From NCBI GenBank assembly GCA_963733915.1, contig CAVTEP010000004.1, positions 112,758 to 176,757 of the forward strand: a DNA stretch of 64,000 nucleotides. The letters are read 5' to 3'. Source of the stretch: Candidatus Sulfomarinibacteraceae bacterium (lineage in GTDB: Bacteria; Acidobacteriota; Thermoanaerobaculia; Thermoanaerobaculales; Sulfomarinibacteraceae). Of this stretch, positions 6,556 to 13,390 are shown in pieces (the first letter of the stretch is position 1; the number at the start of each line of letters is the position of its first letter). The notes beneath the pieces were generated by a model, which saw only the letters and a list, made by a program, of their open reading frames with translations, did no database searches and was not told the DNA's origin. The translations under genes were made by a program, and so were the position numbers.

Positions 6556-6596
6556 CCGTCTGGAGGATTGAGCTCGGGGACGTCGTCTGATTGACC

Positions 6597-6950
6597 ATGA
6601 GCGCGAGCAGGAAGCCCCACACCGTCTACGCGACCGACCGCGGACGGGTGTGCCCGAAGTGCGGTTGGCCCATGGTGAGCTGCCGCTGTTCGGCGGGCTT
6701 TGACGAGACGGTGCCGGACCGCATCACGGCCCGCCTGCGCATCGAAAAGGCGGGCCGCAAGGGCAAGACTGTGACCGTGGTCGAGGGTCTGCCCCGAAAC
6801 AGCGCCTTCCTCAAGGACCTCGCTTCCGAGCTCAAACGTGCCTGCGGCTCGGGCGGCAAGGCCGGCGACGCTTCAGTCGAGATTCAGGGCGACCGCGTCG
6901 ACACCCTTCGCGAGCTCCTCCGCGCCAAGGGTTGGGTGGTCAAGGGGTGA
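6597..6950 (+). CDS. yciH: SUI1/YciH family translation initiation factor-like protein
   Basis: CPKCGWP..C.C zinc-ribbon N-terminus plus the SUI1 domain (RKGKTVTVVEGL ... LKRACGSGG ... IQGD). Track ORF starts at TTG 6591; ATG is at 6597. Confidence 0.85.
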   Translation: MSASRKPHTVYATDRGRVCPKCGWPMVSCRCSAGFDETVPDRITARLRIEKAGRKGKTVTVVEGLPRNSAFLKDLASELKRACGSGGKAGDASVEIQGDRVDTLRELLRAKGWVVKG

Positions 6951-6974
6951 TCGGGACGAGCCGTGGAACGCGGG

Positions 6975-7778
6975 TCAACAGCTGCGGTGGAGCAGCGCCG
7001 GTGGCTGGATCGCGGCGGCGGCGAAGCCTTCCATAACCCGCTCGGTGACGTCGGTCTCGAAGGCCTTCTCGAAGCTCACGTCGAGCACGTAGGCCTTGGC
7101 CCGAAGGCGCAATGCGAAGTAGCTGTCCTGCAGCACCTGAGAGATGGTGACCGCCCACGGGCGCGCGGTCGAAACGAAGCGGGAGCTGGTCAGGGCTTCG
7201 GTGACGATGCTCTTGGCCTTCGCAAGATCCTGGTCGAGGCCGATATAGAAGTCCATCTGCACCATCATCTCCACCGACCCGGCGTTGCCCGAGGCCACCG
7301 AGTCGGTGAGAAACCTGTTGTTCGGGATGGTCACCTGGGTGTCGTCGAGGGTCACGAGCGTGACCGACCGCAGTCCGATGTGGCGGATCTCGCCGTACCA
7401 GCCGTCGAATGTGACCCGGTCGCCGACCTGGAAGGGGTGGTCGATGAGGATGATCAGCCCGGCGATGATCGACGACACCAGGTCCTTGAGCGCGAAACCC
7501 ACCGACACTGCGGCGGTTCCGCCGAGCGCTAGCAGGACCTGCGGCGTTATCTCCACCACCGTGAGCGCGGCGGAGAGCAACCCGATGAGCAGCACGCCGA
7601 AACGCGCGAAGGAGCCGATCTGGTTGATGACGAGCCGTCTGTCGGTGAATCGTTGTCCGAGCTCGCTGAAGAGGCGCCGCGCCAGGTGCGCGATGACCAG
7701 GGTGACCACGATGACCAACAGCGCGTAGGGGAGATTCCCGGGTTGAAATATGGACAGCAGGCTCGTGTTTGGCTCCAT
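6975..7778 (-). CDS. Small-conductance mechanosensitive channel (MscS family)
   Basis: Track ORF 6975-8180 is trimmed to the internal ATG (complement of 7776-7778, MEPNTSLL). Three TM segments, then LIDHPFQVGDRVTFDGWYGEIRHIGLRSVTLVTLDDTQVTIPN, the classic MscS beta-domain. Confidence 0.85.
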   Translation of the reverse strand: MEPNTSLLSIFQPGNLPYALLVIVVTLVIAHLARRLFSELGQRFTDRRLVINQIGSFARFGVLLIGLLSAALTVVEITPQVLLALGGTAAVSVGFALKDLVSSIIAGLIILIDHPFQVGDRVTFDGWYGEIRHIGLRSVTLVTLDDTQVTIPNNRFLTDSVASGNAGSVEMMVQMDFYIGLDQDLAKAKSIVTEALTSSRFVSTARPWAVTISQVLQDSYFALRLRAKAYVLDVSFEKAFETDVTERVMEGFAAAAIQPPALLHRSC

Positions 7779-7785
7779 CACGCCC

Positions 7786-10299
7786 TCATGCCGGAAGCAG
7801 GTTGCGGCGGCGCAGCAAACGGACCGCCGCGCGATGCCAGGTAGTGGAGACCCGGTACATCTCGTTGTCGAGAGTGATGGCCCCGAGTTCGAGTAATCGA
7901 TCGAGGTGGATGAAACACTGGACGCGGTCAAACCGGGTGACCTCGACGAGATCGTCGAGGCAGATACTCTCGTGGGTGACGATGGCGCCAAGGACGAAGA
8001 GACCGTCCTGTCCCCCGTCCTCGAGCAATTCGACCTCAGGTGCCTTGAAGAGCCGCACGCGTACGCTGGACCCGCTGTCGGGGTCGAGCGAGCGCAGGAA
8101 AAAGTGCAGGGCCGCGCGAGGGTTTCCGTCCGAATAGTCCCACAGCAGGCGGGTGTAGCCCTCTTCGGACTCGACGACACTCGCGCGTACCGACACCCCT
8201 TCGAGCCGGTCGATCACGAGATCGGCGTAATTGAAGCGGACCCCACTTGCCGCGCACCGGGTGCGGATGAGCTCGGCGATCTGGCTGTCGCTCCAACCGG
8301 TGAGGTGGCGGCGTGTACGGAACACCCTCGCATCTGATCGTACCGCCGTCAGATGACGCCACGCGTAGGCACTCATGCTGCACAGCCAGAACACGTTGTT
8401 GCACGTGCGGTTGACGAGTGTCGCGAAGCCGCTGAAGGCCTCGTAGCCGCCGACGTTGGCGAGAAAGAGGTGTTGGGCCATGTCGAGCACGACGACACGC
8501 TTTGGTCCGTTGTACAGCGCGCGTCCGAGCTCGCGCGGTCCCGCATCGGGCCCAGCATCAACTTCCAAGAGCTCTGCGAGGCGAGTGCAGAGATCGGACG
8601 AGTCCGTCACCCGCCGGCCGAGCGTGATGCTTTGGATGTCGAGGTCGTCGCGCCGGATTTGATTGAGCCAGGTGGTCTTGCCGATGCCGCGTTCGCCGGT
8701 CAAGAGGTAGGAGCCTCGCGCTCCGGTGTCACGCCAGACCGTCAGGATCTCGTGCAGCTCGGTCAATCCCGGAAAGTTGGGCACCACCAACGGCCCGGCC
8801 TCGATGGCGTCTTCACCAAATGCCTCAATGAGTCCATCGGGCAGCTCTTCGACATCGCCCTCGGCGTAGCCCTGCTTTTCGGCCCGTCGCTGTACACGCC
8901 GTCTGAAGAGAAAAGCGAGAGCCTTCTGGGTCTGCTCGAAGCCGAGCGCGAACTCGCGGGTCACCGTTGCGGCCCCTCGACCCGCGAGCCACACAACGGC
9001 GGCGGGTGCGAGAAACACCCCGTACCAGCGCGACCTCGTCGTGCGCAGGATCGCCGCCAGCCGGCCCGTCGGTTGCATCTTCAAAAATGTGTCGATCATC
9101 ACACTGCGCCAGCGGAAGAGCTCGACGAGCACCGCGACCAAGACCACCACCCACGCGAACTTCATGACCAGGGTCGAGAGAAACCCCTGGCCCATGCCGC
9201 GCGACACCAGGGTGATCAGGATCAGGATCGTGGCAACGCGGAGGACCGTGCGAACACTGTGCAGCAGCGTCGCCCGGCGTGCGTCGGTCGCGTCGAGACC
9301 GTAGTGCACGGCGATGTTGACGAGCGTGGTTGCGAGGACATCGGTGGCGAGGCGGTAGACGCCGAAAACGATGAGTAATTTGAGCAGGACGCTGATCTCG
9401 GTGAACTCGGCGGCCGCGCCCAGCGCCCACTTGACGGCCGCGACGGTCATCAGGAACAGCGCCCACGGGGCGGCGGTCTCGCACCACCTGAACACCCGCT
9501 GCACCCTCCTTTTGGAGGCCACGCTGGCGAGCGAGCGGAAGGCCGCCGTCCGCAGTTGCTGGATCCACCCGCGCCACCTTTGGCGCACCCACAAGGCGGT
9601 GGCGAGCACCGCGATCACCAGGACCAGTTGCGAGAGGGCGGTGCCGACAGCAAAGAGATCGTGGGCCATCTGCGGCACGTCGTCAATCTCTTGCTGCCTC
9701 AGAAGGACGTGGTAGCGAGCCATGAGCGACACCGTGCGGACCTCGCGCCGTGCCTGCTGCAGACCTTCACGGCCGAAGCTGACCAGGGCACGGCGGCGGT
9801 CCTCCGAAAACGAGTCGCGCGACCGCTTCCGCAGCAGGACCAGGCGTTTCAACGCCTCGCCGTGCAGCTCGACCTCCTGCCAGCGAACGGCGGACTCATC
9901 GGCCGTAGGCGCCGAGTGGAACCGCGCGAGCGCGTCGGCAAGAGCCGTCTGTTCATCCTCGAGGGCAGTCACGAGGTCGACATCGATCTCATCGACCGCC
10001 ACGGTCCCGGGCGCGGCCGCCTGGAGGCGATCGGTGAACCCCTGAATTCGTCGGTCGATGGCCGTGCGCCTGGCCTCCAGGTCCAAGGCCGTTCTTTCGC
10101 CGTTTTCGCGTCCCGTGTCGGCGATTGGATTGCTGATTGGGGCAATCTCGGATTCGGATTCAACCGGGGCGGGGCTCGGAAGTGGCGTAGGAGCCGCAAC
10201 CGCCGTCGGCGTCGGCTCGTTAGGAGCCGCGGTCGGCACGAGACCGGCCGTCACCAGTGCGAGTACGGTGATTTGGATGACGGGTGCGATTCGGTGCAT
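7786..10299 (-). CDS. Multi-pass membrane protein with N-terminal signal peptide/coiled-coil region and C-terminal P-loop AAA-type ATPase domain
   Basis: 837 aa. Signal peptide, Pro/Ala-rich linker, long charged helical region, about 7-8 hydrophobic segments, then Walker A GERGIGKTT and Walker B VVVLDMAQ. Its stop is 7 nt upstream of the MscS start. Confidence 0.7.
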   Translation of the reverse strand: MHRIAPVIQITVLALVTAGLVPTAAPNEPTPTAVAAPTPLPSPAPVESESEIAPISNPIADTGRENGERTALDLEARRTAIDRRIQGFTDRLQAAAPGTVAVDEIDVDLVTALEDEQTALADALARFHSAPTADESAVRWQEVELHGEALKRLVLLRKRSRDSFSEDRRRALVSFGREGLQQARREVRTVSLMARYHVLLRQQEIDDVPQMAHDLFAVGTALSQLVLVIAVLATALWVRQRWRGWIQQLRTAAFRSLASVASKRRVQRVFRWCETAAPWALFLMTVAAVKWALGAAAEFTEISVLLKLLIVFGVYRLATDVLATTLVNIAVHYGLDATDARRATLLHSVRTVLRVATILILITLVSRGMGQGFLSTLVMKFAWVVVLVAVLVELFRWRSVMIDTFLKMQPTGRLAAILRTTRSRWYGVFLAPAAVVWLAGRGAATVTREFALGFEQTQKALAFLFRRRVQRRAEKQGYAEGDVEELPDGLIEAFGEDAIEAGPLVVPNFPGLTELHEILTVWRDTGARGSYLLTGERGIGKTTWLNQIRRDDLDIQSITLGRRVTDSSDLCTRLAELLEVDAGPDAGPRELGRALYNGPKRVVVLDMAQHLFLANVGGYEAFSGFATLVNRTCNNVFWLCSMSAYAWRHLTAVRSDARVFRTRRHLTGWSDSQIAELIRTRCAASGVRFNYADLVIDRLEGVSVRASVVESEEGYTRLLWDYSDGNPRAALHFFLRSLDPDSGSSVRVRLFKAPEVELLEDGGQDGLFVLGAIVTHESICLDDLVEVTRFDRVQCFIHLDRLLELGAITLDNEMYRVSTTWHRAAVRLLRRRNLLPA

Positions 10300-10455
10300 A
10301 AATGTTTGTCTTTCGGGCTCGAGATCATAGCAGGGATTGGTTGTGGTTCAATACGATGGATCTTCCACTTCACCACTGAAGTCTCCAGCCCGCTCGATTC
10401 CACTGCTAATATCGGTGCAGCCCAGCAAACATTCGGATCCGATGGGAGTTTCAGG

Positions 10456-11643
10456 GTGACACGCCGACGGATCAACCTCGCAACATTGCTCATCGCCACC
10501 GTGTCACTCGTCATCGGCTGCCAACCACCGATCACACAGACCTCCAGCACCGAGGTGGCCCTGCAGACGCTCGTCGACCGGGCCGTGGCCGACCACGAGC
10601 TCGTCCACGCCGCCGCCCTCCACGTCGATTCGCCCGCATCCGGTCTCGTCTGGGAGGGCGCCGCCGGAGCGGCCGACCCCGATACCGGTTCGGTGATGAC
10701 CGCCGCCACCCCGGTCCGGATCGCGAGCAACACCAAGACCTTTATCGCGGCCACAATCCTCCGTCTGGCGGAGGAGGGACGGCTCGGCCTCGACGACCCG
10801 ATCACAGCGCACCTGCCTGAAAACCAGGTCGGTCTGCTCCGGGCGGATGGCTACGATCCCGAGAAAATGACCGTCCGCCACCTCCTCACGCACACCAGTG
10901 GTCTTTACGATCACTCGCAGGGGGATCGCTACGGGGAGGAGATTCTGGCCGACCCCAACCACCGGTGGACCCGCGACGAGCAGCTCACGGCGGCGGTCGA
11001 GTGGGGTGAACCTCAGGCCTCGCCGGGCGAGGTCTACACCTACTGCGATACCGGCTACATCCTGTTGGGCGAGATCGTCGAACAGGTCGCGGGCCGGCCG
11101 ATGGCCGCCGCGGTGCGCGAGATCATCGGCTTTGACCGGCTCGGGATGAACTCGACCTGGTGGGAAACCCTCGAGCCGGCGCCGCGAGGCACGCCCGAGC
11201 GCGCGCACCAGTATTTTGGCGAGGTCGACACCACCGGCTTCGACCCCTCCTTCGACCTCTACGGTGGCGGCGGCCTTGTCTCCACGGTCGGTGATCTGGC
11301 CCGCTTCTACCGCGCCCTTTTCAACGGCGGTGTGTTCGCCAGTCCTGACGCCGCGGCCTCGATGCTGACCACCATCGACGGCGTGCGGGCGCTGCCCGAT
11401 GCGGGCGAAACCGACCTGCCGCCGGGCGCCTACCGGATGGGGGTGTGGGTGGTCGAGGTCGAGGGTCTGAGTACGTACCGCCATACCGGTTTCTGGGGCA
11501 CTCTCGCGACCTACGTTCCCGAGCTCGACCTCACGGTGACCGCGACCGTCAACCAGAACCAGGGCCGGGCGGCGCTCGAAGGGATGGTTCGCGAGGCGAT
11601 CGAGATCATGCGCTCACAGCACGTTGTGGGTGATCCAGTCTGA
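10456..11643 (+). CDS. Serine hydrolase, beta-lactamase/transpeptidase-like family, lipoprotein
   Basis: GTG 10456 after GGGAG. Lipobox LVIGC, SxxK motif (SNTK), HLLTHTSGL. The upstream part of track ORF 9556-11643 is an antisense shadow of the 7786-10299 gene. Confidence 0.8.
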   Translation: MTRRRINLATLLIATVSLVIGCQPPITQTSSTEVALQTLVDRAVADHELVHAAALHVDSPASGLVWEGAAGAADPDTGSVMTAATPVRIASNTKTFIAATILRLAEEGRLGLDDPITAHLPENQVGLLRADGYDPEKMTVRHLLTHTSGLYDHSQGDRYGEEILADPNHRWTRDEQLTAAVEWGEPQASPGEVYTYCDTGYILLGEIVEQVAGRPMAAAVREIIGFDRLGMNSTWWETLEPAPRGTPERAHQYFGEVDTTGFDPSFDLYGGGGLVSTVGDLARFYRALFNGGVFASPDAAASMLTTIDGVRALPDAGETDLPPGAYRMGVWVVEVEGLSTYRHTGFWGTLATYVPELDLTVTATVNQNQGRAALEGMVREAIEIMRSQHVVGDPV

Positions 11644-12445: not shown

Positions 12446-13390
12446 CTACTCCTCCCAAGCCTCCCACAGCATCTTCTTGAGAGTGCGGGCGACGGCGTCG
12501 AGGAGGTGGGCGTCATTGTCGGTGAGGTTTCTGGCCGAAATGGTCAGCTCGGGTGTGATCCGCGCCCGGTGCCAGCTCTCGGTGGTGCCGCGATTGCGGC
12601 GTGGGACATTGAGCACCCGTTGGAGTCGGGCGAGCGACCAACCCAGCCTCTCCTGCGGATCGATGGCATCGAATCCGTTGTGCCCGCCTGCCTCGCCACC
12701 CACGTCCGCGGAGGCCGGTGGATTGTCGGGTTTCGCCTGCTCGTACCTGAGCGGGCGTGGAACCACCTCCGGGTCGTCGGGCTCCTGTGCGGCGGGTTTG
12801 GGGGTGACGGAGGGAGTATCGGCCATGTGTTGTACCTCGTTGGGATCAGTCAGCGAATCGCCGAATGTCATCTCGTCCGGGTCGTCGATCACGACCTCGT
12901 AAAATTCGCCGGATGCCTCGGGGTCAAAGGCGGGCTGCACGATCGGCACGTGCATCGTGTCCAGGGCTTCGATCGTTCTGACGGCCGAACCGTTCGACCC
13001 GTTCCCGCCGGTGTTATCCGAATGTACCGGTTCCGCCCTGGCCGGCACCGGTCCGTCGCCCGCCACGGGCTCGGGGGAAGCGCCGACGTCGACCACCGGC
13101 AGCGGCTCTTCACCCTTGACCATGTCCGCGATCGTCTCCGGGCGTACGCGCTCGAGGATGTCGCGAATGTCTTTGAGGCTCAGGTTACCGACCTCTCCGT
13201 GGTCCTGTTTTTCCCGGATCATCTTCACGAACAACAGCCGATCGAGAAAAGTCTGCGGGTATCGGGTGCGCGGCCCCCGCCGGCCGACTTTTGGCAGCAG
13301 CCGTTTCTGGACGTAATAGGCGATGGTCCGCCGGTCAAAACCGCTCCGATTTTCGACTTCTTCCATGGTGTAGGTGCGGGTGATGGGCAT
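12446..13390 (-). CDS. MerR-type HTH domain protein with long low-complexity acidic/proline-rich middle region
   Basis: N-terminus YTMEEVENRSGFDRRTIAYYVQKRLLP looks like a MerR-family HTH; the rest is unrecognised. Confidence 0.55.
   Translation of the reverse strand: MPITRTYTMEEVENRSGFDRRTIAYYVQKRLLPKVGRRGPRTRYPQTFLDRLLFVKMIREKQDHGEVGNLSLKDIRDILERVRPETIADMVKGEEPLPVVDVGASPEPVAGDGPVPARAEPVHSDNTGGNGSNGSAVRTIEALDTMHVPIVQPAFDPEASGEFYEVVIDDPDEMTFGDSLTDPNEVQHMADTPSVTPKPAAQEPDDPEVVPRPLRYEQAKPDNPPASADVGGEAGGHNGFDAIDPQERLGWSLARLQRVLNVPRRNRGTTESWHRARITPELTISARNLTDNDAHLLDAVARTLKKMLWEAWEE

Follow-up and report, generated by a model that had tools for sequence, protein, structure and literature searches.

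An MscS channel gene coupled to a gene for an ORC/Cdc6-like AAA+ membrane protein points to a possible nucleotide-switched two-subunit mechanosensitive channel in Acidobacteriota and Myxococcota

Two adjacent genes in a 64,000-nucleotide (nt) stretch of a Candidatus Sulfomarinibacteraceae genome (contig CAVTEP010000004.1, positions 112,758 to 176,757; hereafter the window) encode a canonical mechanosensitive channel of the MscS type and an 837-aa (amino acid) membrane protein that ends in an ORC/Cdc6-like AAA+ module, and this pairing recurs in distant Acidobacteriota, Myxococcota and unclassified lineages. The explanation that we favour, with a probability of about 0.5, is that the two products form a two-subunit channel, in which the ORC/STAND-like module would act as an ATP/ADP-binding switch on the cytoplasmic cage of MscS, while the rest of the large protein would provide an MscK-like sensor in trans. 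The observations used were the coupling of the genes, their exclusive co-occurrence, the co-divergence of their products, the domain folds and the state of the sequence motifs. The two genes and the junction between them are as follows.

6975..7778, minus strand: small gene, 267-aa canonical MscS channel with three transmembrane (TM) helices, a beta domain and a C-terminal alpha/beta domain (PF00924, NCBIfam, alignment to Escherichia coli MscS)
7779..7785, minus strand: intergenic spacer of 7 nt, with a GAGG-like ribosome-binding site that overlaps the stop codon (junction sequence)
7786..10299, minus strand: large gene, 837-aa membrane protein with an ORC/Cdc6-like AAA+ module, referred to as P0001 (open reading frame (ORF), Pfam, AlphaFold2, fold match)

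Both ORFs are exactly those reported in a first examination of the window made from its letters alone (the sequence-only reading), and the 7-nt spacing given there is borne out by the junction, which reads TGA-GGGCGTG-ATG with the GAGG-like Shine-Dalgarno sequence lying over the stop codon. Given this short gap and the position of the ribosome-binding site, the large and the small gene are translationally coupled. In species-representative genomes an MscS gene was found directly downstream and on the same strand in all 29 loci of relatives (Acidobacteriota, Myxococcota and unclassified), including Myxococcota and unclassified lineages with a large protein of 25–31% identity; a further Acidobacteriota locus (L062) and the second copies in two Myxococcota genomes (L073 and L074) have the same order, which brings the full-length loci with MscS directly downstream to 32 of the 32 examined. 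Since the 4.65-Mb genome of the window holds six MscS-domain genes, the odds that any one such gene adjoins an MscS by chance would be roughly 1 in 1,000. ORF clustering of 16 loci and the window returned no third conserved neighbour, with just these two families recurring, shadow frames aside, and the flanking genes at five distant loci encode kinases, MarR, Usp and peptidases.

The two genes are also found together when whole genomes are compared. The same 8 of the 24 genomes of the window's genus carry both the ATPase and the MscS gene, the pair is missing from all 16 genomes searched from the neighbouring family, and the same 11 of 301 Acidobacteriota genomes match both the ATPase family and this type of MscS. 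One of these 11 (G056) has the ATPase relative and the matching MscS on different contigs, yet both are present; there, NadA and a BON-domain gene take the place of MscS behind the ATPase relative (L061, G056:C8), and no ATPase relative was found in the ~3.8 kb between the MscS gene (L077, G056:C22) and the upstream contig end. The pairwise identities of the two proteins correlate (Pearson r of 0.95 for 325 pairs and 0.76 for the distant pairs alone), a figure that, as related sequences are not independent, shows consistency and is no formal test. Among the outcomes that the sequence-only reading had named as speaking against it were a lack of conserved synteny in other genomes and an ATPase of a stand-alone family that adjoins MscS by chance; the synteny is conserved in every full-length locus examined, the same genomes hold both genes, and co-occurrence together with co-divergence points to an ATPase family dedicated to MscS.

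The paired MscS forms an orthologous group of its own and a distinct subtype, with 44–65% identity across phyla but only 24–36%, over partial lengths, to four BLAST-detected paralogues (of the five other MscS-domain genes in the genome of the window). In Acidobacteriota, soluble relatives of ~930 aa consist of the ATPase/lid/winged-helix module without any hydrophobic helices, and MscS is the next gene in four of their five loci. As MscS also follows most of these soluble forms, the cytoplasmic module is the constant partner of MscS, and the periplasmic and TM part is an addition in the widespread subfamily to which the 837-aa protein belongs. In Myxococcota genomes (L073, G339:C9; L074, G340:C31; L075, G342:C6) the partner gene is present at least twice, always with a separate MscS gene directly downstream, and the more distant ATPase-only relatives have more divergent MscS-like genes downstream of them.

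An exhaustive profile search for the ATPase family recovered 3,260 clusters (50% identity) with E <= 1e-3, of which 1,514 reach E <= 1e-30. The majority are 850–1,250 aa long and match over their full length; the names given to them in the databases are 'hypothetical' or 'ATP-binding protein' only. Members were present in 63 of 201 Myxococcota genomes (31%) and in the above-mentioned 11 Acidobacteriota genomes (~4%). Within the genus of the window, two genomes without the pair show an empty site (L069, G003:C78; L070, G015:C16), where the SUI1 gene directly adjoins a MerR-type gene, and the pair and a beta-lactamase-like gene thus form an indel at one fixed position in the chromosome. Mobile-element genes were not noticed there, in the absence of a systematic search for them.

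The 267-aa protein was assigned to MscS by several lines of evidence. The MscS beta-domain model PF00924 scored 68.9 bits (gathering cut-off 20.2; E 4e-19), the NCBIfam MscS models matched at 1e-15 to 1e-19, all below their equivalog cut-offs, and phmmer aligned residues 12–260 to residues 27–269 of E. coli MscS (E 5e-17), with all three TM helices included. Hydrophobic V and F occupy the positions aligned to L105 and L109 of E. coli MscS, which we take, by this numbering, to be the gate residues, and no extra domain was found by Pfam. The pore/beta domain is thus encoded separately, as the sequence-only reading had it, but as a complete three-TM canonical MscS and not as a pore/beta fragment. 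When the MscS of the window was compared with 12 distant paired MscS, identity was 59% in TM3 and the beta domain, 47% in the C-terminal domain and 26% in TM1-TM2, and this conservation of the cytoplasmic parts is compatible with a contact at the cytoplasmic cage.

The 837-aa protein was modelled with AlphaFold2 on a 69-sequence alignment (mean predicted local distance difference test, pLDDT, of 88.6), and the following parts were delimited in it, from the N- to the C-terminus.

10225..10299, minus strand: signal peptide or signal anchor, residues 1–25 (hydropathy peak at 4–22)
9664..10116, minus strand: periplasmic helical domain, residues 62–212, a three-helix bundle and a juxtamembrane helix (AlphaFold2, conservation)
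8962..9657, minus strand: membrane region, residues 215–446, five TM helices and a sixth hydrophobic helix (hydropathy, loop charges)
8302..8766, minus strand: AAA+ alpha/beta core, residues 512–666 (Pfam AAA_22, fold match to Cdc6 7jgr_G)
8674-8697, minus strand: Walker A GERGIGKT, residues 535–542 (motif)
8479-8496, minus strand: Walker B VVVLD, residues 602–606, followed by Met607 (motif)
8092..8289, minus strand: AAA+ lid, residues 671–736, bearing the invariant R681 and a DGNPR motif whose R728 is the presumed sensor 2 (AlphaFold2, conservation)
7789..8034, minus strand: MarR-like winged helix and conserved basic C-terminal helix (W821...LRRRNLL), residues 756–837 (VIA, Pfam)

The P-loop ATPase motifs picked out by the sequence-only reading are present (LTGERGIGKTTWL and RVVVLDMAQHL), and Pfam AAA_22 matched residues 527–635 with an E-value of 3.4e-7 and was found in 36 of 38 family members. 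The C-terminal half of the model was matched by Foldseek to Cdc6 (7jgr_G, E 1.2e-8), and VIA superimposed it on the same chain with a Z of 15.9 and a root-mean-square deviation (rmsd) of 3.3 Å over 240 residues, with 2qby_B (Z 15.3), TnsC (Z 14.9) and 1w5s_A (Z 14.5) as further matches. The winged helix spans residues 756–831 of the model; residues 756–837 aligned to the MarR-type 3oop_A (VIA Z 12.0) and Pfam MarR_2 was found in 6 of the 38 members, and the winged-helix-like tail proposed from the letters could be recognised as the last element of an AAA+ core/lid/winged-helix arrangement. Models of the STAND type matched weakly (NACHT in 12 and nSTAND5/6 in 4–5 of the 38 members), and the protein ends with its winged helix, without a STAND-style sensor repeat domain. 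H776 in the winged helix was considered as a possible 'MHD-like' histidine of the STAND type.

The core/lid/winged-helix organisation is common to Orc1/Cdc6 and other AAA+/STAND switches (Cdc6 7jgr_G, archaeal Orc 2qby/1w5s, TnsC 7mbw, Arch_ATPase 2qen/2fna; VIA Z 14–16 over residues 484–837), and the 837-aa protein likewise has a Walker A motif, the Asp of Walker B and a sensor-2-like G-x-x-R motif. In contrast to these proteins, it is membrane-anchored, has no link to replication or transposition, lacks the Walker B Glu and is paired with an ion channel; the sequence similarity to them is confined to the P-loop region, and a role as replication initiator is implausible. Across the 69 aligned members, K541 of Walker A is retained in 61 and D606 of Walker B in 60, while the position of the catalytic Glu after Walker B, occupied by Met607 in the window, is variable (D in 13, L in 12, G in 7, M in 6 and Q in 6). 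R681 and the DGNPR motif are invariant or almost so, and the latter is presumed to be sensor 2 by its likeness to the GDAR motif of Cdc6/Orc1. Because Walker A and the presumed sensor 2 are retained and the catalytic Glu of Walker B is absent, the cytoplasmic module would fit a nucleotide-binding switch better than a hydrolysing motor.

The N-terminal half begins with the layout that had been described from the letters, i.e., a signal peptide and a Pro/Ala linker followed by a charged helical region; the periplasmic helical domain measures ~150 aa (residues 62–212). Typical cleavable signal peptides are found in relatives (e.g., ...AWA/EE), the Pro/Ala linker (residues 19–62) is disordered in the model, and the periplasmic domain consists of helices 62–94, 100–128, 133–163 and 177–206, all with pLDDT >90. 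Family conservation singles out near-invariant R157, G179 and E186 on the periplasmic/juxtamembrane part, and the fold matches of the domain were generic three-helix bundles only (Z 9–12). One metagenomic member of the family (P0137, 1,622 aa) has a GH25 lysozyme domain (PF01183, E 2.4e-38) N-terminal to the same periplasmic/TM/ATPase architecture, a hint that in some members the periplasmic part may be concerned with peptidoglycan.

In the AlphaFold2 model the helical membrane region extends over residues 215–476. Five clear TM helices (215–238, 277–297, 302–331, 349–366 and 373–395) were recognised from the hydropathy of both the single protein and the family alignment, and the counts of Lys/Arg in the loops fit an N-out/C-in topology with five spans; the 7–8 TM segments of the sequence-only reading were not reproduced. 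A sixth helix (428–446) is hydrophobic and equally conserved, opens a continuous 50-residue helix and has Lys/Arg-rich flanks on both sides. It was taken as non-spanning, because an even number of spans would put the ATPase in the periplasm, and could be a membrane-interface or docking helix.

The signal peptide, the long helical periplasmic domain and the extra TM helices associated with an MscS pore module recall MscK (KefA) and MscM (YjeP), the large E. coli channels of the MscS family (PDB 7uw5/7ux1 and 11sm/11so). Since the fold search with the whole 837-aa model gave matches to the ATPase half only, the N-terminal half was folded separately (pLDDT 80), and the first two Foldseek ranks were then E. 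coli MscK (7ux1, E 0.15; 7uw5, E 0.46), neither of them significant. VIA aligned residues 227–439 to residues 505–694 of MscK (Z 9.0, rmsd 5.1 Å, 147 residues) and gave a Z of 8.5 for the TM region of YnaI and of 8.7 for that of MSL1, all below the level of ~13 expected from helical noise, and hhalign against E. coli MscK picked an overlapping region (473–667) with a probability of 3%. The Pfam models MscS_porin (PF12795) and MscS_TM (PF12794) did not match P0001 at E <= 1 or any of 38 diverse members at E <= 0.1; these models were used because a search for MscK homologues had yielded only enterobacterial sequences of >=84% identity, which were left aside. A profile search of the PDB did not return MscK or MscM at E <= 1. 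Unlike in MscK, the extension is a separate polypeptide, has about five instead of eight extra TM helices and carries at its end an AAA+/winged-helix module, which is absent from MscK. Of the resemblance to MscK-type extensions claimed by the sequence-only reading, the layout stands, and the matches in sequence or fold are not significant; the likeness seems to be architectural only and is best treated as a lead rather than a finding.

Separate cytoplasmic subunits that bind nucleotides (ATP/ADP or NAD(H)) are known from other ion-flux systems, namely TrkH-TrkA, KtrB-KtrA and KefC-KefF. These share with the arrangement proposed here the concept of a separately encoded cytoplasmic regulator of a membrane pore, but their regulators have RCK/KTN or flavodoxin folds, not AAA+, and their pores are not of the MscS type. 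The bCNG channels combine an MscS-type pore with a nucleotide-binding regulatory module, which is fused in cis and binds cyclic nucleotides (cNMP), whereas here the module is a separate AAA+ P-loop protein; they are the only nucleotide-linked relatives of MscS cited in a September 2026 review of MscS-like gating, which makes no mention of ATP or of partner or auxiliary proteins (PMC13591265). Nothing of relevance on an ATPase that partners MscS came up in the literature searches either, and the remark of the sequence-only reading that it had met no description of such nucleotide-regulated channel activity agrees with that review.

In the mechanism that we propose, the canonical MscS heptamer would be the pore and the 837-aa protein its dedicated partner subunit. 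The AAA+ core/lid/winged-helix module would dock on the conserved cytoplasmic cage of MscS as an ATP/ADP-binding switch and would set whether, or at which membrane tension, the channel opens. In the lineage of the window this switch would be anchored by the five TM helices and carry the periplasmic helical domain, and the periplasmic/TM part, resembling an MscK extension in trans, could feed an envelope or periplasmic signal into it. We infer the contact between the two proteins, the regulation by nucleotide and the direction of control from genomic association and fold, and the term 'nucleotide-gated' MscS is to be taken in the same conditional sense. It is a tentative proposal, with the odds somewhat against it, that a bacterial mechanosensitive channel would here for the first time have an accessory subunit as an obligatory part, with the ATP/ADP state of a dedicated ORC/STAND-like switch licensing the gating of the MscS heptamer. 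If it is true, emergency solute release would be coupled to the energy state of the cell or to a periplasmic signal, and the view of MscS-type channels as free of accessory proteins would have an exception. The partner family comprises over 1,500 clusters (50% identity), occurs in roughly one-third of the sampled Myxococcota genomes and is strictly associated with one MscS subtype. It would imply that solute release is widely subject to a form of control that has yet to be studied, probably by way of nucleotide binding, and would give the ORC/Cdc6-STAND-type AAA+ switch a new job at a membrane channel.

Several observations weigh against this two-subunit switch. Besides the missing Walker B Glu, the candidate for an Arg finger is present in just 44 of the 69 members, and the module may be a degenerate structural scaffold and not a nucleotide switch. 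The sixth conserved hydrophobic helix (428–446) misfits a simple five-TM topology, two distant ATPase-only relatives (L061 and L076) have no adjacent MscS, and the pair is absent from 16 of the 24 genus genomes, with the empty sites in G003 and G015 marking it as dispensable. No fused ATPase-MscS protein was found above 1,465 aa, which is weak evidence. MscS-type channels are the textbook example of gating by 'force from lipid', activation of MscL and MscS requires no accessory proteins, and E. coli MscS gates without any, so a partner is unneeded for the basic function (PMC13591265).

The signal could also run in the reverse direction, with MscS or the membrane part of its partner sensing tension or envelope stress and the ATPase/winged-helix module providing the output, e.g., an ADP/ATP-switched oligomer that controls a cytoplasmic or cell-wall process. 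STAND/ORC-like switches are typically signal transducers, a point to which the weak NACHT and nSTAND5/6 matches add; the GH25 domain of P0137 hints at a link to the cell wall, and the juxtamembrane R157, G179 and E186 are near-invariant on the periplasmic side. We nevertheless consider this reversal unlikely, as no conserved third gene that might be its target was found in the 16 loci and the window, the soluble forms keep MscS without having a periplasmic part, and the winged helix belongs to the AAA+ fold, with DNA binding being putative. Quite unlikely, too, is an abortive-infection or conflict system in which the STAND/ORC-like NTPase would sense an invader and open the MscS pore, so that the cell is depolarised or drained. 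The patchy distribution, with 8 of 24 genus genomes carrying the pair as an indel at a fixed site and frequencies as different as ~4% in Acidobacteriota and 31% in Myxococcota, would suit such a system, and so would the likeness of the fold to AAA+/STAND defence ATPases (BrxC, Z 13.2; Avs5, Z 11.6; VIA). Neither protein, however, had a match in PADLOC-DB at E <= 0.1, the genes flanking the pair in the window and at the five distant loci are metabolic or signalling and not defence genes, MscS is a complete and strongly conserved canonical channel, the co-divergence of the two proteins gives no hint that effectors are swapped, and where a genome has several copies, every one of them retains a separate MscS.

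Remodelling or loading of other proteins is a common task of AAA+ proteins, and the stoichiometric coupling of the genes would be in line with an assembly, insertion or quality-control factor for this MscS, which we hold to be improbable. The ORC/STAND clade acts by switching and not by unfolding, and the absence of the Walker B Glu, along with the poor conservation of the Arg-finger candidate, argues against a working remodelling motor. Moreover, canonical MscS assembles on its own (PMC13591265). Highly improbable, finally, is a membrane-tethered transcription factor whose winged helix would regulate the adjacent mscS without any complex between the proteins. The MarR-like character of the winged helix (Z 12) and the MarR_2 matches in 6 of the 38 members suggested it, but ORC/STAND modules normally include a winged helix. 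The two genes, moreover, share one orientation and are translationally coupled, and it would be unusual for a regulator to precede its target in such an arrangement. The co-occurrence also persists in G056, where the genes are unlinked.

The surroundings of the pair were examined for further members of the operon and for signals of transcription. One additional feature was noted upstream of the large gene.

10324..10351, minus strand: promoter-like site (TTGAAC, 16 nt, TG-TATGAT), ~25 nt 5' of the ATG of the large gene (consensus match only)

With its extended -10 element, this candidate promoter (10351-10324), predicted from the consensus, is the sole sigma-70-like match in 6800-10600. Downstream of the pair lies the SUI1 gene on the plus strand (6591-6950), convergent with the MscS gene, and upstream lies a divergent gene for a beta-lactamase-family lipoprotein (10459-11643, plus strand; PF00144, E 3.5e-57) with an SxxK motif and the lipobox L-V-I-G-C. 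A 326-aa ORF on the minus strand (10504-11484) was considered as an upstream gene of the operon, as it seemed syntenic by tblastn, yet it is not conserved beyond the genus and was rejected as a shadow of the plus-strand gene at 10459-11643; the operon therefore has two genes only. Further upstream, a PPSR-type kinase/pyrophosphorylase ORF (PF03618; 11614-12516, minus strand) and a MerR-type ORF (12446-13390, minus strand) overlap by ~70 nt when read from their first start codons, and the downstream gene probably begins later than called.

In the window, the block defined by the indel also includes the PPSR-type kinase gene. The beta-lactamase-family gene was found in one or two copies at six of the seven pair-bearing loci of the genus that were fetched (the exception, without a match, is L022), and the empty site lacks it. 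One genome of the genus has an intact-looking copy of the pair on G016:C36 and a second one (G016:C3:80540-84950; L035 / L008, L015-L018) that appears decayed in both genes, with TGA stops and frame breaks in the ATPase frame and the MscS in pieces; the latter could be a pseudogenised duplicate or an artefact of binning or assembly (contamination 4%). At six other loci (L023, L024, L025, L034, L036 and L040) a single frame break interrupts the ATPase gene, at differing positions and with high identity on both sides, and in these metagenome-assembled genomes the breaks are likely sequencing indels rather than real disruptions.

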